Positions 36,093 to 59,632 of a stretch of DNA of 64,000 bases are shown here, in pieces. The DNA is from Chitinophagaceae bacterium (GTDB lineage: Bacteria > Bacteroidota > Bacteroidia > Chitinophagales > UBA10324), in the NCBI GenBank assembly GCA_016704325.1, contig JADJAG010000008.1, positions 54,057 to 118,056 on the forward strand, given 5' to 3'. The notes under the pieces are model-generated. The model made no database searches and was not told the origin of the DNA. It was given only the letters and a program-made list of their open reading frames with translations. The position numbers and the translations under genes are program-made. Numbering within the stretch: the first letter of the stretch is position 1; every line of letters begins with the position of its first letter.

Positions 36093-36168
36093 GTTAAATG
36101 GCTAAATGGCTAAATGGTTAAATTGTTAAATTGCTAAATTGTTAAATTGTTGTGGCGAAGCCGATCAC
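36093..36168 (+). repeat. octamer array (KGYTAAAT x7) ending in the conserved TGTGGCGAAGCCGAT block
   Basis: gttaaatg gctaaatg gctaaatg gttaaatt gttaaatt gctaaatt gttaaatt, then gttgtggcgaagccgatcac. It starts 18 nt upstream of the esterase-family ATG. Confidence 0.95.
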
Positions 36169-36189
36169 TTGCTATTTTGTAATCACCAT

Positions 36190-36245
36190 TCTACTTTGCT
36201 CACTTACTCACCTAAATTAAGATCCAAGACTTAAGACTTAAGACA
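36190..36245 (+). repeat. heptamer array (ACTCAC-type grading into YAAGACT x3)
   Basis: ...ctcactt actcacc taaatta agatcca agactta agactta agac, period 7. Confidence 0.75.
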
Positions 36246-36253
36246 AATAATAA

Positions 36254-36304
36254 AAATGTCAATAGAAAATAGAAAACTTAGTTAAAAAAATCAACCTGTT
36301 TCAG
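36254..36304 (+). repeat. conserved unique block 'core 1' (AAATGTCAWTAGAAAATWGAAAA ... CAACCTRTTT)
   Basis: About 80 percent identical by eye to 39892-39942. The first 23 nt differ at 2 positions. Confidence 0.85.
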
Positions 36305-36371
36305 TCAACGACTTTATTTCCGGCCCTATTTACTTTTTAAGTCCGTAAAGGTCTTTCCTCCATAACTTTTC

Positions 36372-36914
36372 TCAGCAGCCGTCTTTACGAGGGGCACGTT
36401 TATAAATTATTTTACTATCCCGTTCTACATAGTCGCCCGAAACAATTGGATATGAATACTTCGGCGCGTACGATAGAAAATGGCTTCTTATAATTATTCT
36501 GTCGTTAACTTTCAGGCTATGCAATTGCTGAAATTCATTAGACTTTTCCGGACCGAAACTAAGAATATAACCCTCACCATTAATACTGACCATCACGCCG
36601 AAACCTAATCGTGAGCCTGGCGGAAGAGAAAGAGAGGTTACAACAGCGTCCATGTTGGCAGAATCACTTACATGGTTTCTTATTTTAGCCGAAGCGGCAA
36701 GCACTTTTTGACCTTCGGGAGACGCTTCCCATTTTTTGAACTTTATACCCTCCGGAGTAGCCTCCCATTTTTTCATTTCGGCTTTCATTTCTGCAGCAGA
36801 GAGTGGCTTTGGGGTTGCTTCTTTAGAAGCTTCATTCTTGATTTCGCGATTAGCAAGTACTAATCCGCTTACCACAACCAGGGATAAGATCAGCGCATAA
36901 ATAACTTTTTTCAT
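36372..36914 (-). CDS. hypothetical secreted protein
   Basis: Signal/TM N-terminus and an internal duplicated KKWEATPEGIKF / KKWEASPEGQKV. No family recognised. Confidence 0.5.
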   Translation of the reverse strand: MKKVIYALILSLVVVSGLVLANREIKNEASKEATPKPLSAAEMKAEMKKWEATPEGIKFKKWEASPEGQKVLAASAKIRNHVSDSANMDAVVTSLSLPPGSRLGFGVMVSINGEGYILSFGPEKSNEFQQLHSLKVNDRIIIRSHFLSYAPKYSYPIVSGDYVERDSKIIYKRAPRKDGC

Positions 36915-37113
36915 ACTTTTTCAAGTTTAAGTATCAATTCCAACAAAGCTACAAGTCTTTGTGCCCGGCTTTAGTAAAGGAAATGTTAAAAAATGAAAAG
37001 GAAATGTAAAAGTTGCTTGGATAGCTATGCGTGTTTCATTCATTTATGCCAGCTGCGCGCGATTAATCCTTATATGCTAGCAGCAGTGTTTCTGTCTTTC
37101 GTCAATGCGTCTG

Positions 37114-37551
37114 TTATTTTACTCTGCAAGAACATTCGTGATGCTCGCTAATGTATTTGATTGATTCAATACATAGTTCTTTTAGGACGTCTGTATTGAT
37201 GTCAGAAAACTTTTTTACATAAATACAAGCTTTACTCATTTTGAATTTACCAAGGTCAGTTATTAGTGTCCTGCTTTTTTCGGTGTCGGAATACACGTAA
37301 AGTGTTAGTGCGGCTTTTCTTGGTGAAAAGCCCAGAACTGGTGCATCTCCTTCATGTCCGCTTGCATATTTGTAATGATAATTACCAAAACCTATTATGC
37401 TCGGTCCCCACATTTTAGGTTCAGATTCAGACCATTCTTGCATTAGCTCAATTAGCCGGAAACTGTCCGCTTTTTTCTGCTCGTTGTCAACGTATGAGTT
37501 TACAAAATCTATAACGTCCTGTCCAGTATAAGTTGTCTTTGTTTTTGCCAT
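37114..37551 (-). CDS. DUF1801 (YdhG-like) domain protein
   Basis: 145 aa. VIDFVNSY..., MWGPSIIGFG.YHYKY.SG, GFSPRKAALTLY pattern typical of DUF1801. Confidence 0.7.
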   Translation of the reverse strand: MAKTKTTYTGQDVIDFVNSYVDNEQKKADSFRLIELMQEWSESEPKMWGPSIIGFGNYHYKYASGHEGDAPVLGFSPRKAALTLYVYSDTEKSRTLITDLGKFKMSKACIYVKKFSDINTDVLKELCIESIKYISEHHECSCRVK

Positions 37552-37786
37552 TCGATCATAATTTTATGATGCTGATTTCATACTTTATTTGCAAATGTTG
37601 CCAGGCGTGTTTGGTGATTGTGTGGTCGTCCAACTACGTTTTGCGGGTTTAAGAATTTGGCGGTTTCTGAGCGTAAAACTGTCTGCCAACACTGAACTTA
37701 ATACGAAGCACGAAGCTTCATTTAATAACTGAACCGTCAATTTCTTGTAGGTGCTGTTATAGGCTGTGTTTCTTTCGTCCGCTTGG

Positions 37787-38863
37787 TTAATATTGTCCAC
37801 TATAAAACTTATTAGAGTTGTCAACCTTAAGTCCATTGTCATTAAACCATTTTACAAAACTGTCCCATTTATCTTTGTTTTCCGATTGCCATTTATTAAA
37901 ACCATCTTCGTCACCCTTCATTAAAATCCAATGATTATATGCTTCACTCTGTCCTGATTTGAATATTTTGTCCTGATAGTCAATAAGGATATTTGGATGC
38001 GTTTTGTTATGCCCCATTTTAAAATAGTTTTCTACAAAAGATGTTCTTATTTTATCAAGTGAATTGATGTCGATTGCTTTAATACTAATTATTGACATAA
38101 TAAATGCTTGACCAAATACCATACAAAATGGAAACTTGATTTTGTCTTTACCAATTATATCGTCAGCATTAATTACAGCATTGCAAAAATCAATTTTAGC
38201 AGAGTCGCCATTAATTGTGATTTCACTTTTGTAAGTGTCAAAAAGAAGCTTGCTAATTTCCGAAGTCCTTTTACTGTTGCGTTCTAAGTTCATAAATATT
38301 TCTCCGTAAATCAACCCCCAAACTTCTTCTGTCGAACTACAATAAATTCTTGTCGCTCGGTAGTAATTGGAAGGAAATTTTGGGTCTACTTCAATTCCTT
38401 TTTCATAAAAGGGTAGTGCTTTTTCATATTCCTTTTTGTTCCAATGGACATTTCCTTTTTCTAAATATATTATTCCTGAATTAGGAAATTTTTTTAGACC
38501 AGCGTCATATGCTTCAAAAGCTTTGTCGCTTTTGCCCAGTACGTCATAGCTATTTCCTAAAAGTTGAAAAAGTCTTTCTGTTACATCTTTATGGTCTATA
38601 TTTTTTTCTAAAATTTTAATGGCAGTCTTATAGTCTTCTTTAGAATAGTATGCATAGGCCATTTCATAAGGGTAGTCAAACCTGTCTGGGTCGAGTTTTT
38701 GTGCTTCTTCAAGTAACTTTATACTCTCGTCAAGTTTCCCGTTGTCCATAAGTTTGATAGCTTCTTGACCTTTTGCAAGTGCCTTTTCCTTGTTGTTCTG
38801 TCCATACGCAATTTGTCCTGTTGCAAATAGAAGAAGAAGTCCGATTGTTCTGATTGTTGTCAT
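37787..38863 (-). CDS. TPR-repeat protein with uncharacterised C-terminal domain
   Basis: Signal peptide and about five TPR units in aa 25-190, followed by about 170 aa with no recognisable family. Confidence 0.7.
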   Translation of the reverse strand: MTTIRTIGLLLLFATGQIAYGQNNKEKALAKGQEAIKLMDNGKLDESIKLLEEAQKLDPDRFDYPYEMAYAYYSKEDYKTAIKILEKNIDHKDVTERLFQLLGNSYDVLGKSDKAFEAYDAGLKKFPNSGIIYLEKGNVHWNKKEYEKALPFYEKGIEVDPKFPSNYYRATRIYCSSTEEVWGLIYGEIFMNLERNSKRTSEISKLLFDTYKSEITINGDSAKIDFCNAVINADDIIGKDKIKFPFCMVFGQAFIMSIISIKAIDINSLDKIRTSFVENYFKMGHNKTHPNILIDYQDKIFKSGQSEAYNHWILMKGDEDGFNKWQSENKDKWDSFVKWFNDNGLKVDNSNKFYSGQY

Positions 38864-39053
38864 TGTTTGTGTCGTCTTAACATAGCCTATAATGGTTGGC
38901 TTTACGCTACTATTTCGTTTATTTCTCTATTACACTTTCCTCTTAATCCATTGAAAAAGAACAGTATCCCTTTCTAACTGAAAAAATTGCGCATTGCGTA
39001 AATATCCTAAACCTGACTTCAAATTTTGTAACTATTCAGCATAAAAGAAAAAC

Positions 39054-39177
39054 GGCACACGGATGACACGGATTTGACTGATAACCACAGATTAAACCAG
39101 TGTTTATTCAAAGTATCCTTTATGAATGATCGAATAAAAATCCGTAGGAATTCGTATGATCAGTGTTATCCGCGTTC
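39054..39177. repeat. inverted arrays of 9-nt CACRGAT-type words
   Basis: Left: cacacggat gacacggat ttgactgat aaccacagat. The reverse complement of the right arm reads gaacgcggat aacactgat catacgaat tcctacggat. About 38 nt separate the arms. Located 50 nt past the DUF962 stop. Confidence 0.75.
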
Positions 39178-39227
39178 TATTTCTTAAATCTTCACTACTT
39201 AGAGTTACTAATTTTTTCTATTTGCAA

Positions 39228-39707
39228 TTAATACCCAACTCCCAATTTCCGGTAGATAAAATGCAATAACCAGACAGGGCCAATCAACAGAAACTGGACA
39301 TCCTTGAGGAAGGAAGGTTTTTTGCCTTCTACTTTATGGCCCCAGAACTGTCCTATCCAGGCGGTGGCAAAAATCAGTAGGGAGATGGCCCATAGGGGTA
39401 ACAGGTTACTATTTGAAAGCTGGTAGATGATGAAGGTGAAGCCGGCAACAATAAGCAGCATGCCTAAAGCCAGAGGAATGGAGAGCCGCACGTAGTAGAT
39501 CATGGCAAAGGCCATGAAAATAATGGCCCAGTTAAGGGTAATGGGCCCTAATGCAACCTGGTGAAAGAAGGAAGGTATCGGAATGGACCAAAGCAGTCCG
39601 AGCAGGCTGATAACTATAGCAGGCACGCAAATCCAATGCACCGCTTTGTTTACCGGGTTTTGATGGCTGTCACCGTATTCATCAAGGAGGGATTGAATGG
39701 GGCGCAT
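39228..39707 (-). CDS. DUF962 / Mpo1-like membrane protein
   Basis: YGDSHQNPVNKAVHWICVP motif and 4 TM helices. Confidence 0.75.
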   Translation of the reverse strand: MRPIQSLLDEYGDSHQNPVNKAVHWICVPAIVISLLGLLWSIPIPSFFHQVALGPITLNWAIIFMAFAMIYYVRLSIPLALGMLLIVAGFTFIIYQLSNSNLLPLWAISLLIFATAWIGQFWGHKVEGKKPSFLKDVQFLLIGPVWLLHFIYRKLGVGY

Positions 39708-39773
39708 GGGCTTTGAATTTTAATGCAATATATAGTTTGCGGGGATATGTTATTCATTGGGAGGGGAATTGAT

Positions 39774-39864
39774 AAGAGCCAAGAGCAAAGAGCAAAGAGC
39801 CAAGAGCCAGGATTCAAGACTCAAGACTTTAGACTTAAGACTTTAGACTTAAGACTCAAGATGA
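39774..39864 (+). repeat. gapless heptamer array, 13 units (AAGAGCM x5, then AAGACTY/TAGACTT x6-7)
   Basis: aagagcc aagagca aagagca aagagcc aagagcc aggattc aagactc aagactt tagactt aagactt tagactt aagactc aagatga. Confidence 0.95.
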
Positions 39865-39891
39865 GAATCACTAAAAGCAATAGTTACAATC

Positions 39892-39942
39892 AAATGTCAT
39901 TAGAAAATTGAAAAATCAGTTTAAATAGGTCAACCTATTTTA
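39892..39942 (+). repeat. conserved unique block 'core 1' (second copy)
   Basis: aaatgtcattagaaaattgaaaaatcagtttaaataggtcaacctatttt aligns with 36254-36304. Confidence 0.85.
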
Positions 39943-39956
39943 AGAGCACACAAGTA

Positions 39957-40040
39957 CTCAAATCTCAAATCTCAAATCCTAAATCTCAAATCTCAAATCT
40001 TAAATCTCAACACTCAAATCTTAAATCTCAACACTCAAAG
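39957..40040 (+). repeat. gapless heptamer array, 12 units (CTCAAAT family)
   Basis: ctcaaat x3, cctaaat, ctcaaat x2, cttaaat, ctcaaca, ctcaaat, cttaaat, ctcaaca, ctcaaag. It ends 5 nt from the prolyl oligopeptidase stop codon. Confidence 0.95.
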
Positions 40041-40045
40041 TTGCA

Positions 40046-42178
40046 TTAAGGCTGTGCTTTCAGGCTCTTAATTCCCATGTTCCAAAACATGAAGGAATAG
40101 ATGTCTGTGTCTTCTTCAATCACCTTGGCTACCGGCCTTCCGCCGCCATGTCCGGCATTTACATCAATGCGTATCAACACCGGCGCATCACCGGCCTGTG
40201 CCGCTTGTATCGCCGCTGCATACTTGAAGGAGTGGGCAGGTACTACCCTGTCGTCGTGATCTGCCGTGGTAATAAGGGTGGCAGGATAGCGGGTGCCTGC
40301 TTTCAAATTATGCAATGGGGAATACTTGTATAGATTTCTGAAATTCACGGAGTCGGTGCTTGCTCCATATTCTACAGCCCAGCCCCAGCCTACTGTAAAG
40401 GTGTGGTAGCGTAACATATCCATAACGCCCACTCCCGGGAAACAGACTTTAAAAAGATCAGGCCGTTGCGTCTGACAGGCTCCTACCAGCAAACCGCCAT
40501 TGGATCTGCCAATGATGGCAAGCTTTTCAGAGGAAGTATATTTCTCTTTGATCAGGTATTCCGCCGCTGCGATAAAATCATCAAACACATTTTGCTTCTT
40601 CAGCAACATGCCGGCTTCATGCCATTCCTCGCCATATTCACTGCCACCACGCAGATTGGCTACTGCATAGATGCCTCCATTCTCGAGTAAGGCAATTCGG
40701 GAAGCGCTGAAGCTGGGGGTGAGTGAAATGTTGAAGCCTCCATATCCATACAACATAGTTGGATTGCTGCCGTCCAGCTTCACTCCCTTCTTGTGAATGA
40801 TAAACATCGGAACCTTGGTACCATCTTTCGAAGGATAGAATACCTGTTTCGTTTCGTACAGGTCGGGATTGAATTTTACTTCGGGCTTTTTATACACTTC
40901 CGATTTTCCGGTGGCTATATCGTACTTATAAATCGTAGCCGGTGAGGTGAATGAAGTAAATGAATAGAACAGCACTTTATCATCCTTTTCCCCTGAGAAA
41001 CCCGCGACCGTTCCATAACCAGGCATCTTTGCTTCATGCTCCATTTTGCCGGTGCGGTCAAACTGGTACACGCGTGCGGTGGCATCCTGCAGGTATTGTG
41101 CAAATACTTTTCCTCCGGCAGTCATCACGTTTTGAAGCAGCATCTTCTTTTCCGGAATCATGGGTTTCCAATTCGAGGTAGCAGGATTTTTCGGATCTAC
41201 GGAAACTACTTTGTAGTTCTTCGCTTCAAAATTGGTCATCACCAACAGGTTCTCGCCCTCATTATCCAATACATTGTAATTGTATTTGAACCCTTCAAAC
41301 AGCAATTTGAATCCGGCTTCACGATTTCTCAGATCCATGTACCAGAGTTCGGTTCCATCTGTTCCTTCAGCGATGTTGATGATGAGGAATTTTTCATCTT
41401 CTGTGGTCTGCGCACTCATGTACCTGAGGGGATGGTCTTTGTCGGAATAGATGAGCTGATCGTTGCTTTGCGGATCACCCAGCTTGTGATAATATACTTT
41501 CTGGAATTTATTGGCCTGGGAAAGTTCTTCTCCTTTCTCCGGTGCATCATAACGGCTGTAGAAAAATCCATCTTTATACCAGGCTGCACCTGAAAACTTG
41601 GTCCACTCCAGTTTGTCGGCCAGCTTTTTCTTTGTGGCCACTTCCATTACATAGATCGTCTGCCAGTCGCTGCCTGCTTCCGAAACGGAATAGGCCAAAT
41701 ATTTACGGTCGTTGGAGAATCCGCTGAAATTGACGGAAGTGGTTCCGGCAGCATTCAATGCATTGGGATCGAGAAAGGTAACGGGTTCACCTGTAAGTCC
41801 TTTCTGATAGAAATACACACTCTGCGGCTGCAGCCCGTCATTTTTGGAATAGAAGTAATATTCACCTGCACGGTAGGGCGCTGAGGTTCTCGGATAGTTG
41901 TAAATTTCTGTGATACGGGCACGTATCTGTTCCCGATAGGGTATTTTAGCGAGGTAGTCGAACGTGACTTTATTCTGTTCTTTAACCCATTCCGTGGTGG
42001 CGGGAGCGTTATCGTCTTCGAGCCAGCGGTAAGGGTCGCTTACGTTGGTTCCGAAATAGTTATCAGACTGATCGGTTTTCCTGGTGTCAGGATATTTCAA
42101 CTGACCGTAAACAGGAACGGTGGTAAAGAAGCAAACAACTGCAAGCATGGTGAACAGGAAAAAATGGTGGGTCTTCAT
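40046..42178 (-). CDS. prolyl oligopeptidase (S9A serine peptidase)
   Basis: Signal peptide and beta-propeller N-domain. Catalytic GRSNGGLL (Ser), TADHDDRV (Asp) and NAGHGGG (His) motifs. Confidence 0.93.
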   Translation of the reverse strand: MKTHHFFLFTMLAVVCFFTTVPVYGQLKYPDTRKTDQSDNYFGTNVSDPYRWLEDDNAPATTEWVKEQNKVTFDYLAKIPYREQIRARITEIYNYPRTSAPYRAGEYYFYSKNDGLQPQSVYFYQKGLTGEPVTFLDPNALNAAGTTSVNFSGFSNDRKYLAYSVSEAGSDWQTIYVMEVATKKKLADKLEWTKFSGAAWYKDGFFYSRYDAPEKGEELSQANKFQKVYYHKLGDPQSNDQLIYSDKDHPLRYMSAQTTEDEKFLIINIAEGTDGTELWYMDLRNREAGFKLLFEGFKYNYNVLDNEGENLLVMTNFEAKNYKVVSVDPKNPATSNWKPMIPEKKMLLQNVMTAGGKVFAQYLQDATARVYQFDRTGKMEHEAKMPGYGTVAGFSGEKDDKVLFYSFTSFTSPATIYKYDIATGKSEVYKKPEVKFNPDLYETKQVFYPSKDGTKVPMFIIHKKGVKLDGSNPTMLYGYGGFNISLTPSFSASRIALLENGGIYAVANLRGGSEYGEEWHEAGMLLKKQNVFDDFIAAAEYLIKEKYTSSEKLAIIGRSNGGLLVGACQTQRPDLFKVCFPGVGVMDMLRYHTFTVGWGWAVEYGASTDSVNFRNLYKYSPLHNLKAGTRYPATLITTADHDDRVVPAHSFKYAAAIQAAQAGDAPVLIRIDVNAGHGGGRPVAKVIEEDTDIYSFMFWNMGIKSLKAQP

Positions 42179-42245
42179 AGGTGATGATTTATTTTCGGGA
42201 AAGGGTGCAAATATAGATAATGGAAATTCAAATCTCGATGGGAGG

Positions 42246-42350
42246 CAAGAGCCAGGAGCCAGTAGCCAGGACCCAAGACTTAGGACTTAGGACGCGCTAC
42301 TCAATACTCATTACTCATTACTCATTACTAACTACTCACAACTCAACGGT
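42246..42350 (+). repeat. gapless heptamer array, 15 units, morphing through four word classes
   Basis: caagagc caggagc cagtagc caggacc caagact taggact taggacg cgctact caatact cattact cattact cattact aactact cacaact caacggt. Confidence 0.95.
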
Positions 42351-42358
42351 GTTAAACA

Positions 42359-42389
42359 AAACTGCCCCGCGGAGATGCAGGGCAGTTTT
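42359..42389 (-). terminator. intrinsic terminator downstream of the M4 protease gene
   Basis: Stem actgccc(42361-67)/gggcagt(42381-87) with a 13-nt loop. T/A runs on both sides give the minus-strand RNA a hairpin followed by UUUUGUUU. Located 22 nt past the stop codon. Confidence 0.75.
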
Positions 42390-42410
42390 AAGCTGAAAGG
42401 CAAGATGAAA

Positions 42411-45400
42411 TTAATTCACCCGAACCAGTTTCTTCCAGATCACCGTCTCTCCTACTGCAAAGCGAACCATATAGATGCCGCCTTCAGCTAATGAAACAGG
42501 ATACGTATAGGTACCTGCAGACTGACTGGCATTGTCGAGTACCGGCTGTACTTTCTGACCTAACATATTCCAGATTTCAATATTCACAGCAGAAGCTTGC
42601 GGCAGAGAATACTCAATCACTGCCTGGCTGTTGAATGGGTTAGGGTAAATGTTCAGATCAAAGCTGAGAGAAGGATCGGTAATTCCAACCGCAAGGATGG
42701 TAATGAAATCTTCCGTTATAAATGAACAACCGGCTCCATCTTTAGCGGTAAGGATCACATTGTAAGTACCTTCTTGAGTATACAAATGTGTGGGATTCTC
42801 CTGTGTAGAAGTTCCACCATCACCAAAGTTCCAATCCCAGGATGTAGCACCTGAAGAATTGCTGGTGAAGGACACGATTTCATTTTCATACACAGTTACC
42901 GGATTATAGGCAATCGCAGCATTCACAATGGTAACATCGATAGTTTGCGTAACCGTATCACAACCATCCGTTCCACAGGCAATCATTTCTACTTCATAGG
43001 TGCCTGAAGCAGTGTATGAATGGCAAGGATCATTCGATGTGGAAACGCCACCATCGCCAAAGCTCCAATCTATACTGGTAGTGCCTGCTTCTGTTGAATC
43101 ATTAAAACAAACTTCACCCTGGCAACCCACTGTGGCGTTGAAAGAAACACAATTGTCCTGGTCAACATTAACGGTAAGCAATACGGTGTCAGATGGATTG
43201 AATGGATCGTTGCTGCTTACTACGATGTATTCCGTATAGGTACCATTAGCAAGTCCTTCACTGTTTATTGTCACATTTACTACCTGTGAACCGCCCACGC
43301 CCAAAACACCATCTCCGGAAGGGCTGATAGAAACCCAATCAGCAACAAGCATGGAGTTTACCCATGCTAAAGTATTCCCCATGGTAACACCTGCATTTAC
43401 ATCCGATACTTTATAATCGAACCCAACATAAACCACGTGTCCGTAACCAACACTTTCATAACCTACTATGGTACCACCTGAATAAGTGATCAGGTCGATC
43501 ATGTTGGAAGTGAGATTAAGCGAATGGGAATTTTTTGGACCATCGGCTATTGAAGTACCCAAAGATTGCGTTATGGGATGCGTAGTATTTACTACCGTTA
43601 AAACCTCGTTGGTACCTAATGAACCATAGGTACCTGAAATTAATCCGGTATTAAAGAGACAAGCGACTTTTGTAGATGCCGCGCCACACATAATTACCGT
43701 TCCACCGTTGTTTACAAATTCCTGTAAGGGGCCGGCAAAGTTCAGGTAATCAGAAGCGGTACCGATAGCCTTGGTAATCAGGCAAACATTTTTATTCTGC
43801 AAAGCCGCCGCCAGATCCTCTGCATTGGTGGTATTTATCTCGGTAATGGTATTATTTGGATAATAGGTATTGATTGCATTGATGGTATTCGGATACGATT
43901 CACTAAGATCTGCTCCATAGGTCAATGCAAGAATGTTGGGTTGATCACCCTGAAAGTTGTATTCACTTTCTGCAACGTTGTACAAAAGGTCACCGCCACC
44001 GTCATTGGTAATGCTGAAAGTCAGGTTGGCAGTAGTTGTATTGCAATTCAGATCCACTTCGAGGCTACTTGGGTTTACCTTCACTATTGGTGCAGCCTGT
44101 ACTACTACCGTTTTTGTAATAGTATCTGAACCGCCGCAATTAGCAGAAATCAACTTCACACTATAGGATCCGGAACCATTGAATACATGCGAAGGGTTAG
44201 GCAATGTAGAAGTTTCGCCATCGCCAAACTCCCAGAAGAAATCTATTGGATCGTTCGTAGAAATATCTGCAAAATCTACAGACTGTCCATAAGCCGGTGT
44301 GGTAGTGCTGATGGTAAAGTCGGCAACAGGAGTTACTGTACCACCGACAACTGAAGTATAGGTAGCTGTATAACCGCTATTGGCTTGTGAACTGTTAGAA
44401 GTCCAGGTAATGAAAAGTTTACCGGAATTACCCGTTACCTGTGGATAAGGAAATGGAAATCCTGACACAGATAAAAGTAAAGGTGCTGAAGCATCTTGTC
44501 CGTCATAAACTTTCAGGTAATCGTTATTGGCCTGCGAGGCAAAGGCGGAAAAAGTAAGGGTGATACTTCCTGCACAGGGAGGTGAAATCAACAAAGAACA
44601 GTCTTCATTATTCTGATAGTTACCTGCCGGTCCGCCGGTATCATGAAACGTGCCGGTAGTAAGGTTTACTGATGAAAGGCCGCATAGATTGAACACCGGT
44701 TCTACCAGAATGTAATCGGGTTTGGTAATGGTATGCGTACCAAAGTTATTGGTCACTTTAAGTGTTACATCAAATGAACCGACGTCATTATAGACAATAC
44801 CGGTTGGGTTCTGCAAAGTGGAAGTAGCCGGTGTGCCACCTTCAAACTGCCATTCCCATGATGTCGGAACATTCACACTCAGATCGAAGTAATTAACAGA
44901 TCCTCCGAAATTCACGGTAGTAACGTCGGAAGTAAATTCCGCAACAGGTGCTACACTCACTGCTTCGAATATCACCGAGTAATCTTCAGCCTGCCCATTC
45001 TGTGGACTATAGCAAGAACCGGTAATTGTATTGGCCGCTTTGTCATCCATTACCCGCATCCTTAAAGGCGTATTCAACATGGCAGTGGTGGGTGTATAGA
45101 TAATGCCGGAATGCACACCGGTAACCGCATTGTCCTGGTAAATCAATTCATTGGTTTCATTGAACGTGCCATCACCATTATAATCAATCCAGACACGAAG
45201 GTCTTCGCTCTTTCCGGCACCGGTAGTCACCGATAAGATAACAGGATCTCCTGCAACCAGGTGGGTAAAGTCGGAACAACTGAAATCCTGATAACCTTCT
45301 GTGGCGCCGAGGGAGGAGTTGTCAATTTCATTTAACACAACTTTAAATACACCAAAGCCGGAAGAAGGTGCTGTAGCAATAGGCGTACAAATTGGAGGAA

Positions 45401-47625: not shown

Positions 47626-47651
47626 GGCTACCTTTCAGTTAGCTGCTGATA

Positions 47652-49129: not shown

Positions 49130-49146
49130 GCTTTAATAAGTTTTGG

Positions 49147-49154: not shown

Positions 49155-49234
49155 GTATTCGGAAGTTGATCTTGTATGTATGGGGATTTTTGGGGGTACG
49201 ACAATTCGTTCATCTTGTCAAGCAATGGTTGGTG

Positions 49235-49284
49235 GGTTAAATGGTTAAATTGCTAAATGGTTAAATTGCTGCGGCGAAGCCGAT
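49235..49284 (+). repeat. octamer array (GGTTAAAT/TGCTAAAT x4) ending in TGCGGCGAAGCCGAT
   Basis: ggttaaat ggttaaat tgctaaat ggttaaat tgctgcggcgaagccgat. Same architecture as 36093-36168. Confidence 0.95.
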
Positions 49285-49382
49285 TCCAAATACTCAATTC
49301 AAGACTTAAGATTCAAGACTTAGGACTTAAGACTCAAGACTTATTTTGTCTTAAGTCTTAAATCTATAATCAATATTCAATT
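49285..49382 (+). repeat. heptamer array, about 14 units (AAGACTT family), with an internal inverted copy forming a hairpin
   Basis: tccaaat actcaat tcaagac ttaagat tcaagac ttaggac ttaagac tcaagac ttatttt gtcttaa gtcttaa atctata atcaata ttcaatt. The taagactcaagac(49328-40)/gtcttaagtctta(49348-60) stem has one mismatch. Confidence 0.9.
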
Positions 49383-49422
49383 TCTCGTACACCCTATTTC
49401 AAAGTTACAGGACAACCTGTTT
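49370..49422 (+). repeat. conserved unique block 'core 2' (TCAATATTCAATTTC..TCGTACACCC..CAACCTGTTT)
   Basis: Shares TCAATATTCAATTTC and TCGTACACCC with 59574-59605, and CAACCTGTTT with core 1 loci. Confidence 0.85.
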
Positions 49423-49679
49423 GAGGAAGCTTGAATGGAATGGAATAAAATATTATTGATTTGGATTCAGCCGGACCGCAAGTTTACTTAGGAACTCAAT
49501 GCAAACGCTTTGCAAATTTTAAATAACCACTCCACTAATCTGTCCAATTTTAATATTATGGCTTAGCAGGCTAAGAATGAACATCCACTCGAATTACAAA
49601 ACCTGTTGGATATCCTGATCAAAAATCTTACTTTAGTGCTTCGAAGTTATTTCGGCTATATCTTATATCTATCGTATCT

Positions 49680-51785
49680 ATGAATCACTGGAGTGAATAT
49701 CCGTTTGTACGGATACTATTTGCTTATCTCGCTGGAATTCTAATTTGTCTTTTTACGCCGCTTCAATTTCCTGCCTGGATACTGCCTGTTTTATTCCTTG
49801 TTACCTGGCTGGGACAGCTCTACTTGCACAAGAAAGCTATTCGAACCTACCGATATACATCAATTATCGGACTTGGTTTTCAACTGGCGGTTTTTGCTTT
49901 CGGCAACGTGCATACTTTTGATTGCATTGATATAAATGATGCACGCCACTACATTCATATAACGGACAATGCATCATTCCTTGTGGTAAAAATCACAGAG
50001 CCGCCTCTTGAAAAAGAACGCAGTATCAAAGTAGTTGTGGAAGTAATAGCGTACAAAACGGGAGTTGCTGTAAGACCTGCTTTTGGAAAATCTATTCTCT
50101 ATTTGAGTAAAGACAGTGTTGTTACTTCTTTGTTACATGGCAATGTTTTACTGGTGAAAAATAACTTCAGGCAGGTGGCAGCACCTGCTAATCCCGGCCA
50201 GTTTGATTATAAAAAATACCTTTGGTACAAAGAAGTATATGCTACGGCCTATCTTCAAAAAGATGACTGGCACCTGTTGCCTTTGCAATCCGCCAACCCG
50301 CTTTATGCATTTACCTTCCGGCTGCGCGATCTTTCAGTGAATGCCCTGCAAACTTTTATTACTTCACCGCGTGAAGCAGCAGTTGCAGTAGCATTGGTGA
50401 TTGGTTTCAAAGACAATATGTCACCGGAAACCATGCAATCATATACGGCTGCAGGAGTGGTGCATGTACTGGCTGTCTCCGGCTTACATGTGGCCATTTT
50501 ATTTGCCTTACTGCATCAGTTGCTATTCTTTTTGAATCGCAAGAAATATGGGAAAATCATACAGTCTGTCCTCATCCTTCTTGTAATCTGGATCTTCAGT
50601 ATGGTTACCGGATTATCGGGCTCAGTGGTACGGGCTGCGACTATGTTTTCATTTATCACCATAGGTAAAAACATGAAACAGCCTGTGAACCTGTTCAACC
50701 TGCTTGCCTGTTCAGCCATGGTAATACTACTGGCAGATCCATTGTTGGTGATGGATGTGGGATTTCAACTCTCCTACATTGCCGTGCTTGGCATTGGCAC
50801 GCTTAACCGCTACATTGATCATTGGCTCCCTCGTGAAAACAAACTAATTGACTACCTCTGGAAAATGGTAGCAATGTCTTTAGCCGCACAGATAGCTACG
50901 CTTCCGCTGACAACCTATTACTTTCATCAATTCCCCACCTATTTTTTACTGGCAAACATTGTAGTCATTCCGGCTGCAGGATTGTTACTCCATCTTGGCA
51001 TTCTGTTGATTGCCATACACTTTCTTCCACCGTTGGCGGCAGTTACCGGAGCATTAATCCGATGGATCACCTATGCGATGAATGAGTTTATTGCAAACAT
51101 TCAGCATCTGCCGGGATCGGTAATTCAATTGCCTGGCATTAACCTTTTACAATTTCTGCTGCTGGGTATTTTGACTATTGCAGTCAGTCATTATTTCATC
51201 ACTCTCCGGACAAAATGGTTGTTTACTACGCTTATTTGCCTTATCGGACTACCGGCAATACATGCAATTGATGCTTGTCTGCGCTTTCATGAGAATACCA
51301 TTACGCTTTATTCCTTCAAAGGTGCAAGCGCACTGGAATTTCGGTCAGGCAATAGCCTGCCATTATTCAAAAAAAATGGATCAATAAGAAGTATGGATTC
51401 AATATACCTGCAGCAACGGTGGAGGTTAGCACATATCAGGAATTTTGAATCATCAGATCAACTAAACGCTTCCAGATCCTTACAAAAACAAGATACCTTA
51501 ATTATTAATGCTATCTATCAATTCTGCAACTACCGCATGGCTGTTATTCAACAGCCAATGGTTTCCGATGCCGGCACAAGCAAAATTATAGTTGATGCAT
51601 TGGTAATTGCCGGAAATCCACGACTGCGACTGGAAGACCTCCTGGATAAATTTACGACAAACACCATCATTTTCGATGCTACCAACAGCCGTTACCGAAT
51701 TAATAAATGGGAAGAAGAAGCGAATCATTTCGGTTTGGTTACTTATGATGTGAAGATGGATGGGGCGTTTGTGGTGAGGTTGTAG
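49680..51785 (+). CDS. comEC: ComEC/Rec2 family competence protein
   Basis: 701-aa polytopic protein. N-terminal DUF4131-like region and a Competence domain (YTAAGVVHVLAVSGLHVAILF, SGSVVRAATMF). No C-terminal MBL domain. Confidence 0.85.
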   Translation: MNHWSEYPFVRILFAYLAGILICLFTPLQFPAWILPVLFLVTWLGQLYLHKKAIRTYRYTSIIGLGFQLAVFAFGNVHTFDCIDINDARHYIHITDNASFLVVKITEPPLEKERSIKVVVEVIAYKTGVAVRPAFGKSILYLSKDSVVTSLLHGNVLLVKNNFRQVAAPANPGQFDYKKYLWYKEVYATAYLQKDDWHLLPLQSANPLYAFTFRLRDLSVNALQTFITSPREAAVAVALVIGFKDNMSPETMQSYTAAGVVHVLAVSGLHVAILFALLHQLLFFLNRKKYGKIIQSVLILLVIWIFSMVTGLSGSVVRAATMFSFITIGKNMKQPVNLFNLLACSAMVILLADPLLVMDVGFQLSYIAVLGIGTLNRYIDHWLPRENKLIDYLWKMVAMSLAAQIATLPLTTYYFHQFPTYFLLANIVVIPAAGLLLHLGILLIAIHFLPPLAAVTGALIRWITYAMNEFIANIQHLPGSVIQLPGINLLQFLLLGILTIAVSHYFITLRTKWLFTTLICLIGLPAIHAIDACLRFHENTITLYSFKGASALEFRSGNSLPLFKKNGSIRSMDSIYLQQRWRLAHIRNFESSDQLNASRSLQKQDTLIINAIYQFCNYRMAVIQQPMVSDAGTSKIIVDALVIAGNPRLRLEDLLDKFTTNTIIFDATNSRYRINKWEEEANHFGLVTYDVKMDGAFVVRL

Positions 51786-51812
51786 GTGGTGGGTTGGTTC
51801 TTGGAATGCTTG

Positions 51813-51908
51813 GGTTGAATGGCTAAATGGCTAAATGGTTGAATGGTTGAATGGTTGAATGGTTGAATGGTTGAATGGTTGAATGGCTGAATTGCTATGT
51901 GGTTGCAT
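51813..51908 (+). repeat. octamer array, 12 units (GGTTGAAT/GGCTAAAT)
   Basis: ggttgaat ggctaaat ggctaaat ggttgaat x6 ggctgaat tgctatgt ggttgcat. It starts 28 nt after the comEC stop. Confidence 0.95.
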
Positions 51909-51976
51909 GACCTTTTGGGAACTTTGAAAGCTCATTCCTTTGCGAGCTTTGCGCGCTTTGCATGATCTAATTTTTA

Positions 51977-52025
51977 GGTTGAATACCTGAATTGCATAAA
52001 TGTTAAATGGTTGTGGCTGCGCGAC
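51977..52025 (+). repeat. second short octamer array with a degenerate end block
   Basis: ggttgaat acctgaat tgcataaa tgttaaat ggttgtgg ctgcgcgac. Both arrays in this spacer are followed by GAC(C/T)TTTGGGA. Confidence 0.8.
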
Positions 52026-52157
52026 TTTTGGGATAGTACCAAAACGGTTTCCGTATGTTCTTAATGCACTGAAAGAGCACGAATTAAATTCGGCATCAGG
52101 GATTTGAGTGAAAATAATCAGATAGCTTCTCTATACATTTGCGGTACAAGCAACTTT

Positions 52158-52937
52158 ATGAACTTCCATCTTGTAAAAACCGAAAAGCAAGACCGTATTC
52201 TTTATATAATTCTGGCGAGGCCGGAAAAGAAAAATGCTTTGAATGATCATATGGTGAAAGAGCTGACAGAAGCCCTTCACATGGCAGAGCACGATCCTGC
52301 AGTTAAAGTGGTAATACTAAAATCGGAAGGTGATGTCTTCAGCGCCGGCGCTGACCTCGACTACCTGCAACGGCTGCAACAATTTTCTTATGAAGAAAAT
52401 CTTGCGGATTCATCTTTGCTCAAAGGTCTACTACTGAAAATATATTCATTGAATAAGATTGTGATTGCACAGGTGGAAGGCCATGCCATAGCCGGCGGTT
52501 GCGGGCTTGCTTCCGTTTGTGATTTTTGTTTTTCAGTACCGGAAGCAAAGTTCGGTTATACGGAAGTGAAGATCGGCTTCATACCTGCATTGGTAATGGT
52601 ATTCCTCATCCGTAAAATCAGTGGTACCAAAGCAAGGGAGCTGTTGTTTACCGGAAAGTTGATTGCCGCTGAAGAAGCGGCTGCCTGTGGCTTGATTAAT
52701 GAAGTGATTCCAAAACAAGACATTGCAAAAACCGTCCTGCAATTTGCTACGAGCCTCTGCGAAGGTGCTTCCGGTCAATCGCTGGCTTCCACCAAAAAAA
52801 TGTTCACGAAAGTAGTTTCCATGGAATTATCGGAAGCATTGGAATATGCCGCTCAGATGAATGCGCAGACGCGCAGCAGTGATGACTGTAAAAGAGGCAT
52901 TGGTGCATTCCTGAACAAAGAAAAATTCAAATGGTGA
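52158..52937 (+). CDS. enoyl-CoA hydratase/isomerase family protein
   Basis: RPEKKNALN, VFSAGADLDYL and GHAIAGGCGLASVCDF crotonase-fold motifs. I prefer the ATG at 52158 over the TTG at 52104. Confidence 0.85.
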   Translation: MNFHLVKTEKQDRILYIILARPEKKNALNDHMVKELTEALHMAEHDPAVKVVILKSEGDVFSAGADLDYLQRLQQFSYEENLADSSLLKGLLLKIYSLNKIVIAQVEGHAIAGGCGLASVCDFCFSVPEAKFGYTEVKIGFIPALVMVFLIRKISGTKARELLFTGKLIAAEEAAACGLINEVIPKQDIAKTVLQFATSLCEGASGQSLASTKKMFTKVVSMELSEALEYAAQMNAQTRSSDDCKRGIGAFLNKEKFKW

Positions 52938-56922: not shown

Positions 56923-57702
56923 TCAGAGAGCCAGCTGCAATTCAATCGGGCAGTGGTCGCTGCCCATTACCTGCATGTGGATAGCGGCATTGGTAACCAT
57001 AGGCCTTGTCTCCTTAGAAACAAAAAAATAATCAATGCGCCAGCCTACATTCCGTTCCCTGGCTCGTGTGATCTGATCCCAGTACGTGTACCATTCCGGC
57101 TGCTGGTTAAACTCCCTGAACGTATCTATATACCCCATCTCCACGATCTTATCCATCCAGCTTCGTTCTTCAGGAAGAAAGCCACTGGTTTTTACATTTT
57201 CCTTCGGCCTGGCAAGGTCAATTTCCTTATGAGCGGTATTGTAATCACCGCAAACAATGATTCTCTTATTTTGAAGTCGCACTGATTCCGCACGGCGAAA
57301 TAAGGCATCATAAAAATCAAGTTTGTATTTCACGCGCTCCGGTCCTCTTCCACCATTGGGAAAATAGACATTAAACAAAACGAATTTTTCAAACTCCATT
57401 TCAATTACACGGCCTTCAGAGTCGAAATATGGATCACCCAATCCATTCTGAACATTCAATGGTGTATGCTGCGTATAGATGGCTACACCGGAATAACCTT
57501 TTTTCTCGGCAGAATTAAAGTAGCACTTGTAATCTTCGAAATGGAGGATCTCGTGATCGAGCTGCTCCACCTGGGCTTTCGTTTCCTGCAGGCATAAGAT
57601 GTCAGGTGCTTCAGCAGAGAACCAATCCGGAAATCCCTTTTTCCAGGCTGCCCGTATCCCGTTTATATTCCAGCAAAGTATACGCATTTTATTGGCCGAC
57701 AT
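56923..57702 (-). CDS. xth: exodeoxyribonuclease III
   Basis: ILCWNINGIRA, DILCLQETK and GSDHCPIELQL motifs. Confidence 0.93.
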   Translation of the reverse strand: MSANKMRILCWNINGIRAAWKKGFPDWFSAEAPDILCLQETKAQVEQLDHEILHFEDYKCYFNSAEKKGYSGVAIYTQHTPLNVQNGLGDPYFDSEGRVIEMEFEKFVLFNVYFPNGGRGPERVKYKLDFYDALFRRAESVRLQNKRIIVCGDYNTAHKEIDLARPKENVKTSGFLPEERSWMDKIVEMGYIDTFREFNQQPEWYTYWDQITRARERNVGWRIDYFFVSKETRPMVTNAAIHMQVMGSDHCPIELQLAL

Positions 57703-57825
57703 TTTTAGTTTTTTTGGTGGAAGTTATTCTGTTGCCTTCTCACATTGTAGTTTGAAGCGTTTCAAAAGTAAGAAAATATTAAAGCAATCATTTCTACTTA
57801 TTAACTTCCCGCTAAAAGCGGAATC

Positions 57826-58155
57826 ATGATCACCTGGCAAGATTTTGAAAAACTGGAAATGCATGTGGGAACCATTATCAATGTGGAAGATTTCCCGAAG
57901 GCTAAAAAACCTGCTTACCAACTTACCATTGACTTTGGTGCATTGGGACTTCGCAAATCTTCCGCACAGTTGACGGCACTCTATTCGAAGGAAGACCTGG
58001 TAGATAAGCAGGTGATTGCGGTGCTTAATTTCCCGGTAAAAAAAATCGCAGATTTTTTATCTGAATGTCTTGTGCTTGGAGCCATTCGGGAAGATGGTGC
58101 AGTAATTCTTTTGCAACCTGATCGAAATGCGGCCAATGGTTTGCGGATTGGTTGA
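57826..58155 (+). CDS. tRNA-binding (CsaA/EMAP-like OB-fold) protein
   Basis: ITWQDFEKLEMHVGTIINVEDFPKAKKPAYQLTIDFG..., 109 aa. Confidence 0.8.
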   Translation: MITWQDFEKLEMHVGTIINVEDFPKAKKPAYQLTIDFGALGLRKSSAQLTALYSKEDLVDKQVIAVLNFPVKKIADFLSECLVLGAIREDGAVILLQPDRNAANGLRIG

Positions 58156-58182
58156 ACACGAAACCGTTCTTGCTTGCTTCAT

Positions 58183-59262
58183 TCAAAAAAGACTTAGCTG
58201 TGCCTTCGGTTCTGAATTATCGAATAAGGTATAGTCAAGTGCTGGAAAAACCCGACCTGCAAAGTACCTTGCTTTCGACAATTCAAAAAGCCGCCGGATG
58301 GATGATGCAAACTCCCCTTCCCCTTTCATTCTAATACCAAAACGACTGTCTCCCAATTGCCCGCCATGCATGGAGGCAACCTGGTTCAATACTTTTTCCG
58401 CCCTATCAGGAAGGTTCTTAAAGATCCAGTCTTTGAAAACAATGCCCACATCTCCGTTCAACCTTACCATTCCATAATGAGCTGTCAATGCGCCGGCATT
58501 AGCAGAAGCCTCCAATATCGAAGGTATCTCCTCGCTGTTAATAGAAGGAATTATGGGTGATACATTTATATTGACAGGAACACCCTTTGCAGAGAGCATT
58601 TGCACAACATCCAGTCTGCGTTTTGCGGCAGCAGTGCGTGGTTCCATTAACAACCTCATCTTTTCATCAAGGGTAGTAATGGATATAGTCACATTCACCA
58701 GCTTCATAGAAGACATCTCCGTAAGCAGGTCGAGGTCACGAAGTATCAATGCATTTTTTGTGATGATACTAACCGGATGCTTATATTTTAATAACACCTG
58801 CAACATGCGCCTGGTGATCTGCATTTTACGTTCCAATGGCTGATAACAATCGGTGTTACCGGAAAGCATGATCGACTGCGCAACATGCTTCGACTTTCGT
58901 AATTCCTTTTCAAGCAATTCAGGTGCAGTAGGTTTCGCAATAATCTTACTTTCAAAATCCAAACCTGCATTAAATCCCCAGTAGGTGTGTGTATTTCTTG
59001 CGTAGCAGTAAATGCAGCCATGCTCACATCCCTGGTAAGGATTCATGGAATATTCCATGCCAAGATCCGGGCTGTCTACTTTATTCAGGATCTTCTTCGG
59101 ATGCTCTTGATAAACCTGTGTGGACGGGCTTGAGATCAGTGGTTCATCCAACCCTTCCATGTGCTCTGCAACATACTCCTGTTGCAAGAACCTGTTTTTG
59201 GGTTTTAGTTGCGCACCTCTTCCTTTAAAGTAGCTATCCGGTGATTGTTTGACTGGTTGCAA
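58183..59262 (-). CDS. PA0069-family radical SAM protein
   Basis: N-terminal KGRGAQLKPKNRF and CxxxCxxC cluster motif CEHGCIYCYA. Confidence 0.85.
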   Translation of the reverse strand: MQPVKQSPDSYFKGRGAQLKPKNRFLQQEYVAEHMEGLDEPLISSPSTQVYQEHPKKILNKVDSPDLGMEYSMNPYQGCEHGCIYCYARNTHTYWGFNAGLDFESKIIAKPTAPELLEKELRKSKHVAQSIMLSGNTDCYQPLERKMQITRRMLQVLLKYKHPVSIITKNALILRDLDLLTEMSSMKLVNVTISITTLDEKMRLLMEPRTAAAKRRLDVVQMLSAKGVPVNINVSPIIPSINSEEIPSILEASANAGALTAHYGMVRLNGDVGIVFKDWIFKNLPDRAEKVLNQVASMHGGQLGDSRFGIRMKGEGEFASSIRRLFELSKARYFAGRVFPALDYTLFDNSEPKAQLSLF

Positions 59263-59542
59263 TATGATCTGGATCTATTCATTCAATGTATAAAATTTAA
59301 TGCATTCAAATGGCACTTTTTTTTGAAAGCGTACCCAATTGTCGCGATTCAAGACATTATCTTAAAATGGCCTACTATAATTTGTGCGCATAGACCAAAG
59401 CTCGCAGAACCTGATTGAGCAGTTTTTCTTTACGGGCTATTCGACCTTTGCGAGACAATCATTCCAATTGAAACATGATCTCTTTGTGATGAACAGTTCT
59501 ATATAACAAAATATTTCAACAGTACCTGCGCGACTTTGAAAT

Positions 59543-59598
59543 GTATTGAGTATTGAGTATTGAGTAACAACACTCAATATTCAATTTCCAATTTGTCG
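59543..59598 (+). repeat. heptamer array (GTATTGA x3 ...) forming a 14-bp hairpin
   Basis: gtattga gtattga gtattga gtaacaa cactcaa tattcaa tttccaa tttgtcg. Arms attgagtattgagt(59552-65)/actcaatattcaat(59572-85) have one mismatch. The word is the reverse complement of CAATACT at 42302. Confidence 0.9.
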
Positions 59599-59632
59599 TA
59601 CACCCGATTGAAGGCAATACCATTGAACCTGG
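59574..59632 (+). repeat. conserved unique block 'core 2' (second copy)
   Basis: tcaatattcaatttc(caatttg)tcgtacacccgattgaagg....gaacctggt aligns with 49370-49422. Confidence 0.8.

Follow-up and report, generated by a model that had tools for sequence, protein, structure and literature searches.

What are the short words, repeated head to tail, that fill six gene-free gaps in the genome of a Chitinophagaceae bacterium, and do they belong to one element? The gaps lie in a 64,000-nt stretch of contig JADJAG010000008.1 (assembly GCA_016704325.1, positions 54,057 to 118,056 of the forward strand), which was analysed as a whole and which we refer to as the window; positions given below without another source are those of the window. 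An earlier note, written from the letters alone, had described the six loci as one modular family of 7- and 8-nt word arrays of uniform polarity. We find that observation partly confirmed and its interpretation partly supported. The explanation that we favour, and judge fairly probable, is that slippage-driven arrays of the kind known as long simple-sequence repeats (LSSRs) or short tandemly repeated repetitive (STRR) sequences sit inside a genus-specific, dispersed and vertically persisting mosaic intergenic repeat that resembles bacterial interspersed mosaic elements (BIMEs) and BOX elements.

Tandem Repeats Finder (TRF) reports period-7 or period-8 arrays at each of the six loci, all of them gene-free gaps (36093-36304, 39774-40040, 42246-42350, 49235-49422, 51813-52025 and 59530-59632; loci 1 to 6 hereafter), as the earlier note had claimed. 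Eleven arrays of at least 3 units occur in the window, whereas 20 dinucleotide-preserving shuffles contain 0.5 on average and at most 3, and all of the array DNA (483/483 bases) is intergenic, that is, outside open reading frames (ORFs) of at least 100 codons. By the shuffles and the TRF scores, these head-to-tail arrays of short units exceed the length expected by chance, which is one hallmark of LSSRs. The named words and blocks were each located by regular expression at the positions that had been given for them, and on the + strand only. Half of the array DNA is octameric, and cutting the loci into chunks of 7 or 8 nt yields unbroken registers in which the word changes stepwise. Several of the blocks that had been called unique stand in array register on such 8/7-nt chunking (TCAATAT TCAATTT, AATAGAA AATAGAA and TGCTGCGG CGAAGCCG); their positions stand, but these blocks look like decayed array units. 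The array-bearing loci are also clustered, making up 6 of the 12 spacers of at least 100 nt between 36 and 60 kb and none of the 18 between 1 and 36 kb (hypergeometric p ~0.002 by our own arithmetic). All six array-bearing spacers are thus confined to one 24-kb stretch.

The arrays occupy fixed places in a larger arrangement. On the + strand of the window the constant order is a left module (GGGGTACGACAATTCGTTCATCTTGTCAAGCAATGGTTGG), the octamers (GGYTRAAT)n, a mini-hairpin block (TGCGGCGAAGCCGAT), a 45-nt module that we call M2 (CACTTGCTATT...CTCACTTACTCA), heptamer arrays, the core or TCAATATTCAATTTC..TCGTACACCC, the CAACCTRTTT hairpin and further heptamers. The co-linear order and the orientations of the flanking genes are as had been described, and alignments and nhmmer profiles add the left module and M2 to the modules already recognized. 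What fails is the uniform polarity, since loci 4 and 6 carry inverted arms. Besides its copy at 49189-49236, the left module was found by nhmmer in four more copies, two in L010 and one each in L086 and L350 (labels of this form denote matching sequences from other assemblies), and M2, present at 36151-36220 in the window, recurs in L010, L086, L349 and L350. This corresponds to 5 sites for the left module and 4 independent sites for M2 in the ~91 kb of sequence surveyed from the genus. L010, L086 and L350 all come from the closest related genome (GCA_964524035.1), where the same modules stand in the same order at non-syntenic sites, which upholds the view of one modular, co-linear family. Because L010 has no genes in common with the window by tblastx, the family is dispersed. 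The element is non-coding, multi-copy and ~110-250 nt long, and its CAACCTRTTT block forms the 3' half of a small hairpin at loci 2 (ATAGG/CCTAT) and 4 (ACAGG/CCTGT).

We note that GCA_964524035.1 (contigs CAZGBP01...) is titled 'uncultured Bifidobacteriaceae', a label that looks wrong because this metagenome-assembled genome (MAG) is syntenic with, and ~82 % identical to, the Chitinophagales window; L086 has 82 % DNA identity to window 1135-3155. The window spacer at 3029-3350 is the orthologue of the site at which L086 carries its element, and only a decayed version is present there.

Comparison with relatives reveals arrays that persist at orthologous sites and turn over between strains. 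The best homologues of the prolyl oligopeptidase (POP) come from Chitinophagales MAGs, and the relatives compared were L001 (98 % protein identity, covering loci 2 and 3), L352 and L349 (100 % and 95 % comEC identity, respectively, each covering loci 4 and 5), L350 and L351 (82 % comEC identity, with L350 syntenic from comEC to the radical-SAM gene) and four sister species at ~80-83 % POP identity (L002, L346, L347 and L348). L352, an independent Logan assembly, is identical to the window over 49256-49679 and 51783-51847, through the arrays, which are therefore not assembly artefacts. In L001, whose flanking coding DNA is 93-95 % identical to that of the window, a single AAGATCC replaces the five AAGAGCC units of locus 2, the CTCAAAT array has ~6 units (TRF 6.3) rather than 12, and GGAGGCA at locus 3 has ~3-4 units rather than one. 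At locus 4, L349 still has the 45-nt M2, which is lost from the window, together with a longer inverted arm; at locus 5 its octamer array differs from that of the window. L350 has the locus 4 mosaic without any AAGACTT array, carries other unit variants in the octamer array at the comEC stop codon, and at its orthologue of locus 6 holds a left module and octamers that are absent from the window there; as in the window, the octamer arrays of L349 and L350 begin at the comEC stop codon. Such unit-number polymorphism among close relatives (L001 and L349 against the window) is a second hallmark of LSSRs. The comparison of related strains that the earlier note had proposed thus finds unit counts and whole arrays that vary at 95-98 % protein identity, and the slippage-based change that it had listed among its possibilities gains support from L001 and L349. 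No period-7/8 arrays were found in ~70 kb of the four sister species, in which the orthologous spacers are unrelated. Short-read contigs ended inside arrays or repeats in 8 of the 9 cases examined, as multi-copy repeats are expected to do.

A repeat of longer period is present at the locus 5 orthologue of L350, where 8.4 tandem copies of a 90-nt unit containing CCTTTGCGAACTTAGCGTTCTTAGCG and a TGGCCAGAAGGCCA palindrome (L350 2638-3384) lie between comEC and the enoyl-CoA hydratase gene. The window keeps approximately one copy of this unit (51910-51965), with CTTTGCGAG x2.7.

The anatomy of the individual loci is as follows, on the + strand unless another is given. Locus 1 opens with an octamer array of the units GGCTAAAT/GGTTAAAT/TGTTAAAT (36093-36151; 8 nt x7.4 by TRF and 8-nt chunks), the left end of which is separated by 18 nt from the start codon of an erythromycin-esterase-like gene on the minus strand (34834-36075). 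The GC block TGTGGCGAAGCCGAT and M2 follow (36151-36220; regular expression, alignment, and nhmmer with E=7e-19 for a copy that is itself part of the profile), with a potential mini-hairpin GGC-GAA-GCC at 36154-36162 that lacks the outer C-G pair present at locus 4, and then come AAGACTT x2.7 (36226-36244; TRF), the core AAATGTCAATAGAAAATAGAAAA in heptamer register (36254-36276; regular expression, chunks) and CAACCTGTTT (36292-36301; regular expression). At locus 2, 39774-39864 is one 7-nt register without a frame break, AAGAGCC x5, AGGATTC and AAGACTT/TAGACTT x6, within which TRF reports AAGAGCC x5 (39774-39809) and AAGACTT x6.6 (39816-39861). Beyond it lie the core AAATGTCATTAGAAAATTGAAAA with a small hairpin, AAATAGG-TCAA-CCTATTT, containing CAACCTATTT (39892-39940; regular expression and reading of the sequence) and a CTCAAAT array of 12 units (39957-40039; TRF), the end of which is 6 nt from the stop codon of the minus-strand POP gene. 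Locus 3 is a gapless 7-nt register of 15 units (42241-42346; TRF, chunks) in which the words succeed one another as GGAGGCA, AGAGCCA, GGACCCA, AGACTTA, GGACGCG, CTACTCA and TTACTCA. A Bacteroidota-type -7 box, TATATTTG (42208-42215, - strand, by motif match only), lies 30 nt upstream of the POP start. Between this array and the stop codon of the M4/type IX secretion system (T9SS) protease gene there is a canonical bidirectional terminator-like hairpin, CTGCCCCGCGGAGATGCAGGGCAG, flanked by AAAA/TTTT (42365-42394).

At locus 4 the left module GGGGTACGACAATTCGTTCATCTTGTCAAGCAATGGTTGGTGGG (49189-49236; nhmmer E=4e-15, again for a copy that is itself part of the profile) lies ~60 nt upstream of the minus-strand hpt-like gene and is an imperfect inverted repeat of the right end at 49378-49394. 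Four octamer units (49235-49266; TRF) lead into TGCGGCGAAGCCGAT, with a predicted CGGC-GAA-GCCG mini-hairpin (regular expression, folding; octamers and block together 49235-49284). The oligonucleotide d(GCGAAGC) is said, from the work of Hirao and colleagues, to form an extraordinarily stable mini-hairpin, and the block GGCGAAGCC contains this exact heptamer with extra G-C pairs; the fold here is a predicted one. AAGACTT x6 (49301-49343; TRF) and an inverted AAGACTT arm, GTCTTAAGTCTTAA (49348-49365; inverted-repeat search), form a predicted stem of ~14-17 bp (folding z = -3.9 and -4.0), and the right modules TCAATATTCAATTTC, TCGTACACCC and a ACAGGACAACCTGT hairpin with CAACCTGTTT (49370-49422; regular expression, alignment) close the locus, the hairpin at the CAACCTRTTT block being ACAGG-ACAA-CCTGT. 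Locus 5 comprises an octamer array of 10-12 units around a core of GGTTGAAT x6 (51773-51909; TRF for 51813-51909, and chunks), with degenerate G/T-rich octamer units that overlap the comEC stop codon (51783-51785), and a second, short octamer patch (51977-52029; regular expression, chunks) ending in GGTTGTGGCTGCGCGACTTT, a variant of the GC block. Locus 6 consists of a CTGCGCGACTTT block, GTATTGA x3.4, TCAATATTCAAT and then CAATTTGTCGTACACCC (59526-59605; TRF, regular expression); GTATTGA (59543-59566) corresponds in reverse complement to CAATACT, a word of locus 3 (92 % complementary), and would pair with TCAATATTCAAT in a stem of ~12-14 bp (folding z = -5.5 and -4.4). Three single arrays, in contrast to these inverted arrangements, are essentially unstructured (z between -0.07 and -0.5).

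By Pfam, the flanking genes are housekeeping in character: they encode erythromycin-esterase-like, Mpo1-like and POP proteins, an M4/PKD/T9SS protease, a phosphoribosyltransferase, ComEC, an enoyl-CoA hydratase, a radical-SAM protein and a TPR/PMT protein. In 4 of the 4 copies that could be judged (locus 4, L010a, L086 and L350), the left module is found 49-160 nt upstream of a gene transcribed in the direction away from it, and the octamer or left-module end is directed toward a gene start at loci 1 and 4 and in 3 of 4 further left-module copies (L010, L086, L350), with the octamer end abutting a stop codon at locus 5. At loci 3 and 4, TAnnTTTG -7 boxes (motif match only) stand between the element and the gene, which would make the element promoter-distal there and not part of a 5' untranslated region (UTR); the reading of the arrays as 5'-UTR elements is thus unsupported at these two loci. 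A scan for sigma-70 promoters and terminators gave no more matches than shuffled sequence did and was uninformative.

Two further observations concern sequences related to these modules elsewhere in the window. AATGTCAATAG occurs a third time at 7983-7993, upstream of the minus-strand gene 7070-7960 and 23 nt from its start. Of the three copies of the core block, those at 7983 and 36255 give TTGACA when reverse-complemented and that at 39893 gives ATGACA; the left module at 49189-49236 likewise reads TTGACA. In the 945-nt divergent spacer 7961-8905, six tandem copies of an 85-bp unit (8126-8637) each hold a ~19-bp hairpin (CTCTGTGCTCTCCGTGGTT...AACCACAGAGGACACAGAG). This unit, whose sole Rfam match is a spurious microRNA (miRNA) hairpin, has an ATTGC..GACAAGAT motif in common with the left module of the mosaic.

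Does the element belong to a known family? Rfam 15 gave no matches at gathering and, up to E 1, only spurious miRNA-hairpin matches (E of at least 0.065), so that the search suggested earlier matched no RNA family, and loci 1 and 4 gave no BLAST match against phage and plasmid records. A CRISPR array can be ruled out, as the units are 7-8 nt long and contiguous and are not repeats of ~28-37 nt with unique spacers; coding-repeat and tRNA-derived origins were rejected on anatomy. The label STRR-like, which the earlier note had applied, is fair as to kind, namely tandem heptanucleotides dispersed in non-coding DNA. The words of STRR1-3, which we take to be CCCCAGT, TTGGTCA and CAACAGT, nevertheless occur in the window as scattered single copies and in no tandems, half of the array DNA here is octameric, and the host, judged by its homologues and by a T9SS Por_Secre_tail domain, belongs to the Chitinophagales and is not a heterocystous cyanobacterium. 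The BIMEs of E. coli and the BOX elements of pneumococci are short non-coding mosaics that combine a small number of module types, conserved in order and orientation, and include hairpin-forming parts. The element described here shares with them conserved module order and orientation, a variable number of internal units, dispersal among spacers and parts that are predicted to form hairpins. It differs in that its variable units are 7-8 nt long and not repetitive extragenic palindromes (REPs) of ~35-45 nt or boxB, and in that no mobilising enzyme, whether like the REP-associated tyrosine transposases (RAYTs) or other, was identified; the likeness is architectural only, the REP and boxA-B-C sequences not having been compared directly with the window.

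The earlier note had known of no description of such repeats in Bacteroidota. MacGregor 2015 (PMC4679880), however, reports heptamer direct repeats in five Bacteroidetes, with some spacers holding several different arrays, as well as in Beggiatoaceae and Cyanobacteria, and our own scan, described below, finds octamer arrays of the GGYTRAAT word in many Bacteroidota genomes. The repeats of that study are absent from the orthologous spacers of related species, as are the arrays here. Some of its heptamer sets lie a few nt upstream of start codons, a proximity that only the octamers of locus 1 show in the window (18 nt), the other arrays being 60-260 nt away or beside stop codons. Tandems of its TAACTGA word (TAACTGATAACTGA, both strands) are absent from the window, and neither octamers nor conserved flanking modules are described for the TAACTGA system. 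Mrazek 2007, as cited in PMC4679880, found LSSRs of 5-11 nt in scattered lineages, with heptamers the most abundant, and proposed polymerase slippage as their origin. Rehm 2015 (PMC4692102) described heptamers of Xanthomonas and Nostoc (GGGAATC/GGGGAYT) that are intergenic, variable among close relatives and nearer to the 5' neighbouring ORF. With this class the arrays of the window share head-to-tail 7/8-nt words, an almost exclusively intergenic location, several words per genome, a sporadic phylogeny, and variation of length and sequence among close relatives; the words themselves differ, and are neither G-rich nor capable of G-quadruplex formation. A heptamer simple sequence repeat also lies in the promoter or 5'-UTR of hmw1A and hmw2A of Haemophilus influenzae, where the unit number changes by slippage and sets the expression level (PMC12721329, PMC8262952). 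There, too, a 7-nt tandem repeat stands upstream of a gene, but as a single contingency locus for adhesin genes of a host-adapted pathogen; the arrays here stand at many loci beside housekeeping genes (hpt, POP, comEC, enoyl-CoA hydratase). The kind of repeat is thus already known, because Mrazek, Rehm and MacGregor describe it, and its presence in Bacteroidota is published. The setting of arrays in a fixed order among dispersed, conserved non-repeat modules was not found described for STRRs or LSSRs, and a full-text literature search with the octamer strings returned no paper.

On the explanation that we favour, the six loci would be copies or fragments of one non-coding mosaic, the 7/8-nt arrays of which grow, shrink and drift in place through replication slippage. 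Single-base unit variants would be re-amplified in the process, and we propose that this accounts for the stepwise change of word within an unbroken register. Some of the fixed parts are probably old, decayed arrays, and the whole mosaic would have been copied into several spacers and inherited vertically afterwards. What the sequences show is the anatomy of the element, its dispersal, its persistence at orthologous sites and its turnover between strains. We infer slippage as the mechanism from the differences in unit count, and an effect on the expression of neighbouring genes would likewise be an extrapolation from the position of the arrays. No RNA or protein product is indicated. Our best guess at a function is that the element is a spacer or insulator of variable length, in part folding into hairpins, that lies upstream of core promoters and behind gene ends and could tune the expression of adjacent genes.

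Several points weigh against this explanation. Slippage is seen through unit counts and was not observed directly. No mechanism was identified for the copying of the mosaic: neither a transposase nor a target-site duplication was found, and a clean empty site is lacking, since at the one comparable site, aligned with L086, the window carries a diverged segment instead. In addition, several distant families of Bacteroidota have many copies of the octamer word GGYTRAAT, whose position 5 shows a strict A/G dimorphism, the octamer arrays begin exactly at stop codons, and the array at the comEC stop codon persists across species. These last three features hint at selection or at a directed process, and a neutral spacer leaves them unexplained.

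The octamer was also surveyed in other genomes. A GTDB scan with GGYTRAATGGYTRAATGG returned at least 115 stretches (L006-L120), and the positional figures that follow are for the matches listed. TRF finds true arrays of at least 3 units in 97 of the 115 stretches. More than half are from Bacteroidota, to which Hymenobacter gummosus, two Saprospiraceae MAGs and Bacteroidetes HyVt-532 contribute several contigs each; the remainder are mostly MAGs of the Fibrobacterota-Chlorobiota-Bacteroidota (FCB) group, the Planctomycetota-Verrucomicrobiota-Chlamydiota (PVC) group, the candidate phyla radiation (CPR) and Desulfobacterales, as assigned by MAG binning. Arrays are 76 % intergenic, compared with 15 % of the sequence, and occur in 27 % of convergent, 21 % of co-directional and 13 % of divergent spacers. 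When the arrays are read in GG orientation, a median of 6 nt separates the left end from a stop codon and 94-113 nt separate the right end from the next gene, an asymmetry like that of the heptamers of Rehm 2015; the strand of the octamer shows no bias with respect to the orientation of the neighbouring gene (72 vs 76). Inverted octamer pairs present the GG arm first (7 to 0 by strict count, about 15 to 1 by eye) and often enclose an inner terminator-like hairpin, with arms of ~110 bp in L068. Examples of the arrays are L068 3922-4178, L036 2701-2788, L032 3243-3312 and L015 1306-1395, and many start on the stop codon. The same loci hold other 7/8-nt arrays of 139 distinct words. Array-loop-inverted-array layouts with other words (ACGGTTG x12.6 and CCGTCCA x14.4, GTGATTG, GTAAATG, AATGGTG and GGTGAGAT) are found at L096 2175-2392, L032 4150-4213 and 4597-4697, L081 4640-4709 and L099 2883-2991, so that this architecture is not tied to one word. 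Three octamers can also be read as ATG GYT RAA TGG YTR AAT GGY TRA, a mini-ORF encoding M[VA][KE]WLNG-stop in which Y and R fall at the least disruptive positions. This is probably a coincidence, because half of the units of locus 1 are without ATG and the arrays of loci 1 and 4 are antisense to the adjacent genes.

It is possible, though we regard it as doubtful, that GGYTRAAT arrays are an undescribed, functionally constrained directional gene-boundary signal, widespread in Bacteroidota and possibly in other phyla, that is recognised by a conserved factor or selected as terminator or insulator arms and is not slippage debris. The array would then start at or on the stop codon, GG-first inverted pairs would extend terminator stems to 30-110 bp, and, as GGYTRAAT keeps T-R-A, TAA or TGA would be supplied in all three frames; in this genus the octamer element would have been built into the larger mosaic. 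We note that in viral contigs the real word forms 36 arrays of at least 4 units and a permuted octamer 16; large databases thus contain octamer tandems in some number whatever the word, and a special status for GGYTRAAT is unproven.

A rival that extends to all of the arrays, and that we consider unlikely, is that they are functional DNA- or RNA-binding sites, in which a protein, or the ribosome or its S1 protein, reads the word at gene boundaries and so affects translation, mRNA stability or termination. Similar control was proposed for the TAACTGA repeats that closely precede start codons in Beggiatoaceae and Flexibacter (PMC4679880), and the 18-nt spacing of the locus 1 octamers from a start codon would suit it. 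So would the recurrence of GGYTRAAT on several contigs of one genome (Hymenobacter gummosus 5, Saprospiraceae co248_181 5, HyVt-532 6, among the matches listed), the median of 6 nt between stop codon and array start, the invariably GG-first order of strictly defined inverted pairs (7:0) around inner terminator-like hairpins, and the constraint on the word itself: in units outside the search seed, position 5 is A in 48 % and G in 41 %, position 3 is T in 77 % and C in 15 %, and the six fixed positions are 78-93 % conserved. In the window, however, the distance to the gene boundary ranges from 18 to >100 nt, and orientation to the adjacent gene varies, being sense after comEC and antisense upstream at loci 1 and 4. 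The heptamer words are confined to this species, strains can do without entire arrays, arrays of the permuted octamer in viral contigs are only ~2-fold rarer than those of the real word, and the start-codon distances of the survey, being based on ORFs, are biased to small values.

Could the element instead be mobile? A non-autonomous transposable element (a miniature inverted-repeat transposable element, or MITE, or a foldback element) with its body filled by arrays, of which the six loci would be insertions or remnants, seems to us quite unlikely. Locus 4 is bounded by imperfect inverted repeats of ~16 nt (GGGGTACGACAATT at 49190 and AATTTCTCGTACACCC at 49378-49394), the unit is ~205 nt long, modules stand at non-syntenic sites, L086 carries an element where the window holds other sequence, and the inverted arrays recall the tandem-repeat arms of eukaryotic foldback elements. 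Yet no target-site duplication is visible, the site opposite the L086 element holds a diverged segment and not a precise absence, and the inverted ends are convincing at locus 4 only, being weak or absent at the other copies. Plasmid and phage records gave no match, and the elements of loci 4 and 5 are orthologous across species at 82 % identity, on which ground we see no sign of recent movement.

That the arrays are transcription terminators, or hairpins that stabilise 3' ends, is improbable. In other Bacteroidota, octamers do form long inverted pairs directly after stop codons, some trailed by a T-run or enclosing a canonical terminator (L032, L051, L068), among the 115 loci listed the number of arrays per kb is 2-3 times lower in divergent than in gene-end spacers, and loci 4 and 6 fold significantly. 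But the octamer arrays of the window have no inverted partner, its single arrays are essentially unstructured, and both of its hairpins (loci 4 and 6) lie in divergent (promoter) spacers with no T-run after them. Locus 3, moreover, has a separate canonical terminator at 42365-42394, and a scan of 36000-52200, which covers loci 1-5 and ends short of locus 6, listed no intrinsic terminators at the arrays.

Finally, the notion that the shared blocks reflect chance similarity or an assembly or sequencing artefact can be dismissed as refuted by independent assemblies and relatives: a few 14-15-mer pairs are to be expected in 64 kb by our arithmetic, and TGYGGCGAAGCCGAT alone, too short a pattern, gave 120 chance matches in a metagenome scan with 0 beside octamers, but from locus to locus the blocks keep a constant position with respect to the arrays and they recur beside octamers in L010, L086, L350 and L352, the 23-mer core pair is far beyond chance, the shuffles yield 0.5 arrays against 11 observed, and three independent assemblies reproduce the sequence.

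LSSR heptamers and octamers are among the commonest long simple-sequence repeats of bacteria, and why they accumulate in some lineages and what role they play is poorly understood. Here the copies of the mosaic can be aligned, so that the birth, expansion, word change and decay of arrays are traceable at 100, 98, 95 and 82 % identity. The sister species are free of arrays, and the contrast with them could reveal a lineage-specific factor, such as a difference in polymerase or repair, a binding protein or a mobilising enzyme. We note too that the arrays break short-read assemblies of these genomes. Lastly, the same octamer forms inverted arrays that hug stop codons in cultured Hymenobacter, and this merits a study of its own.

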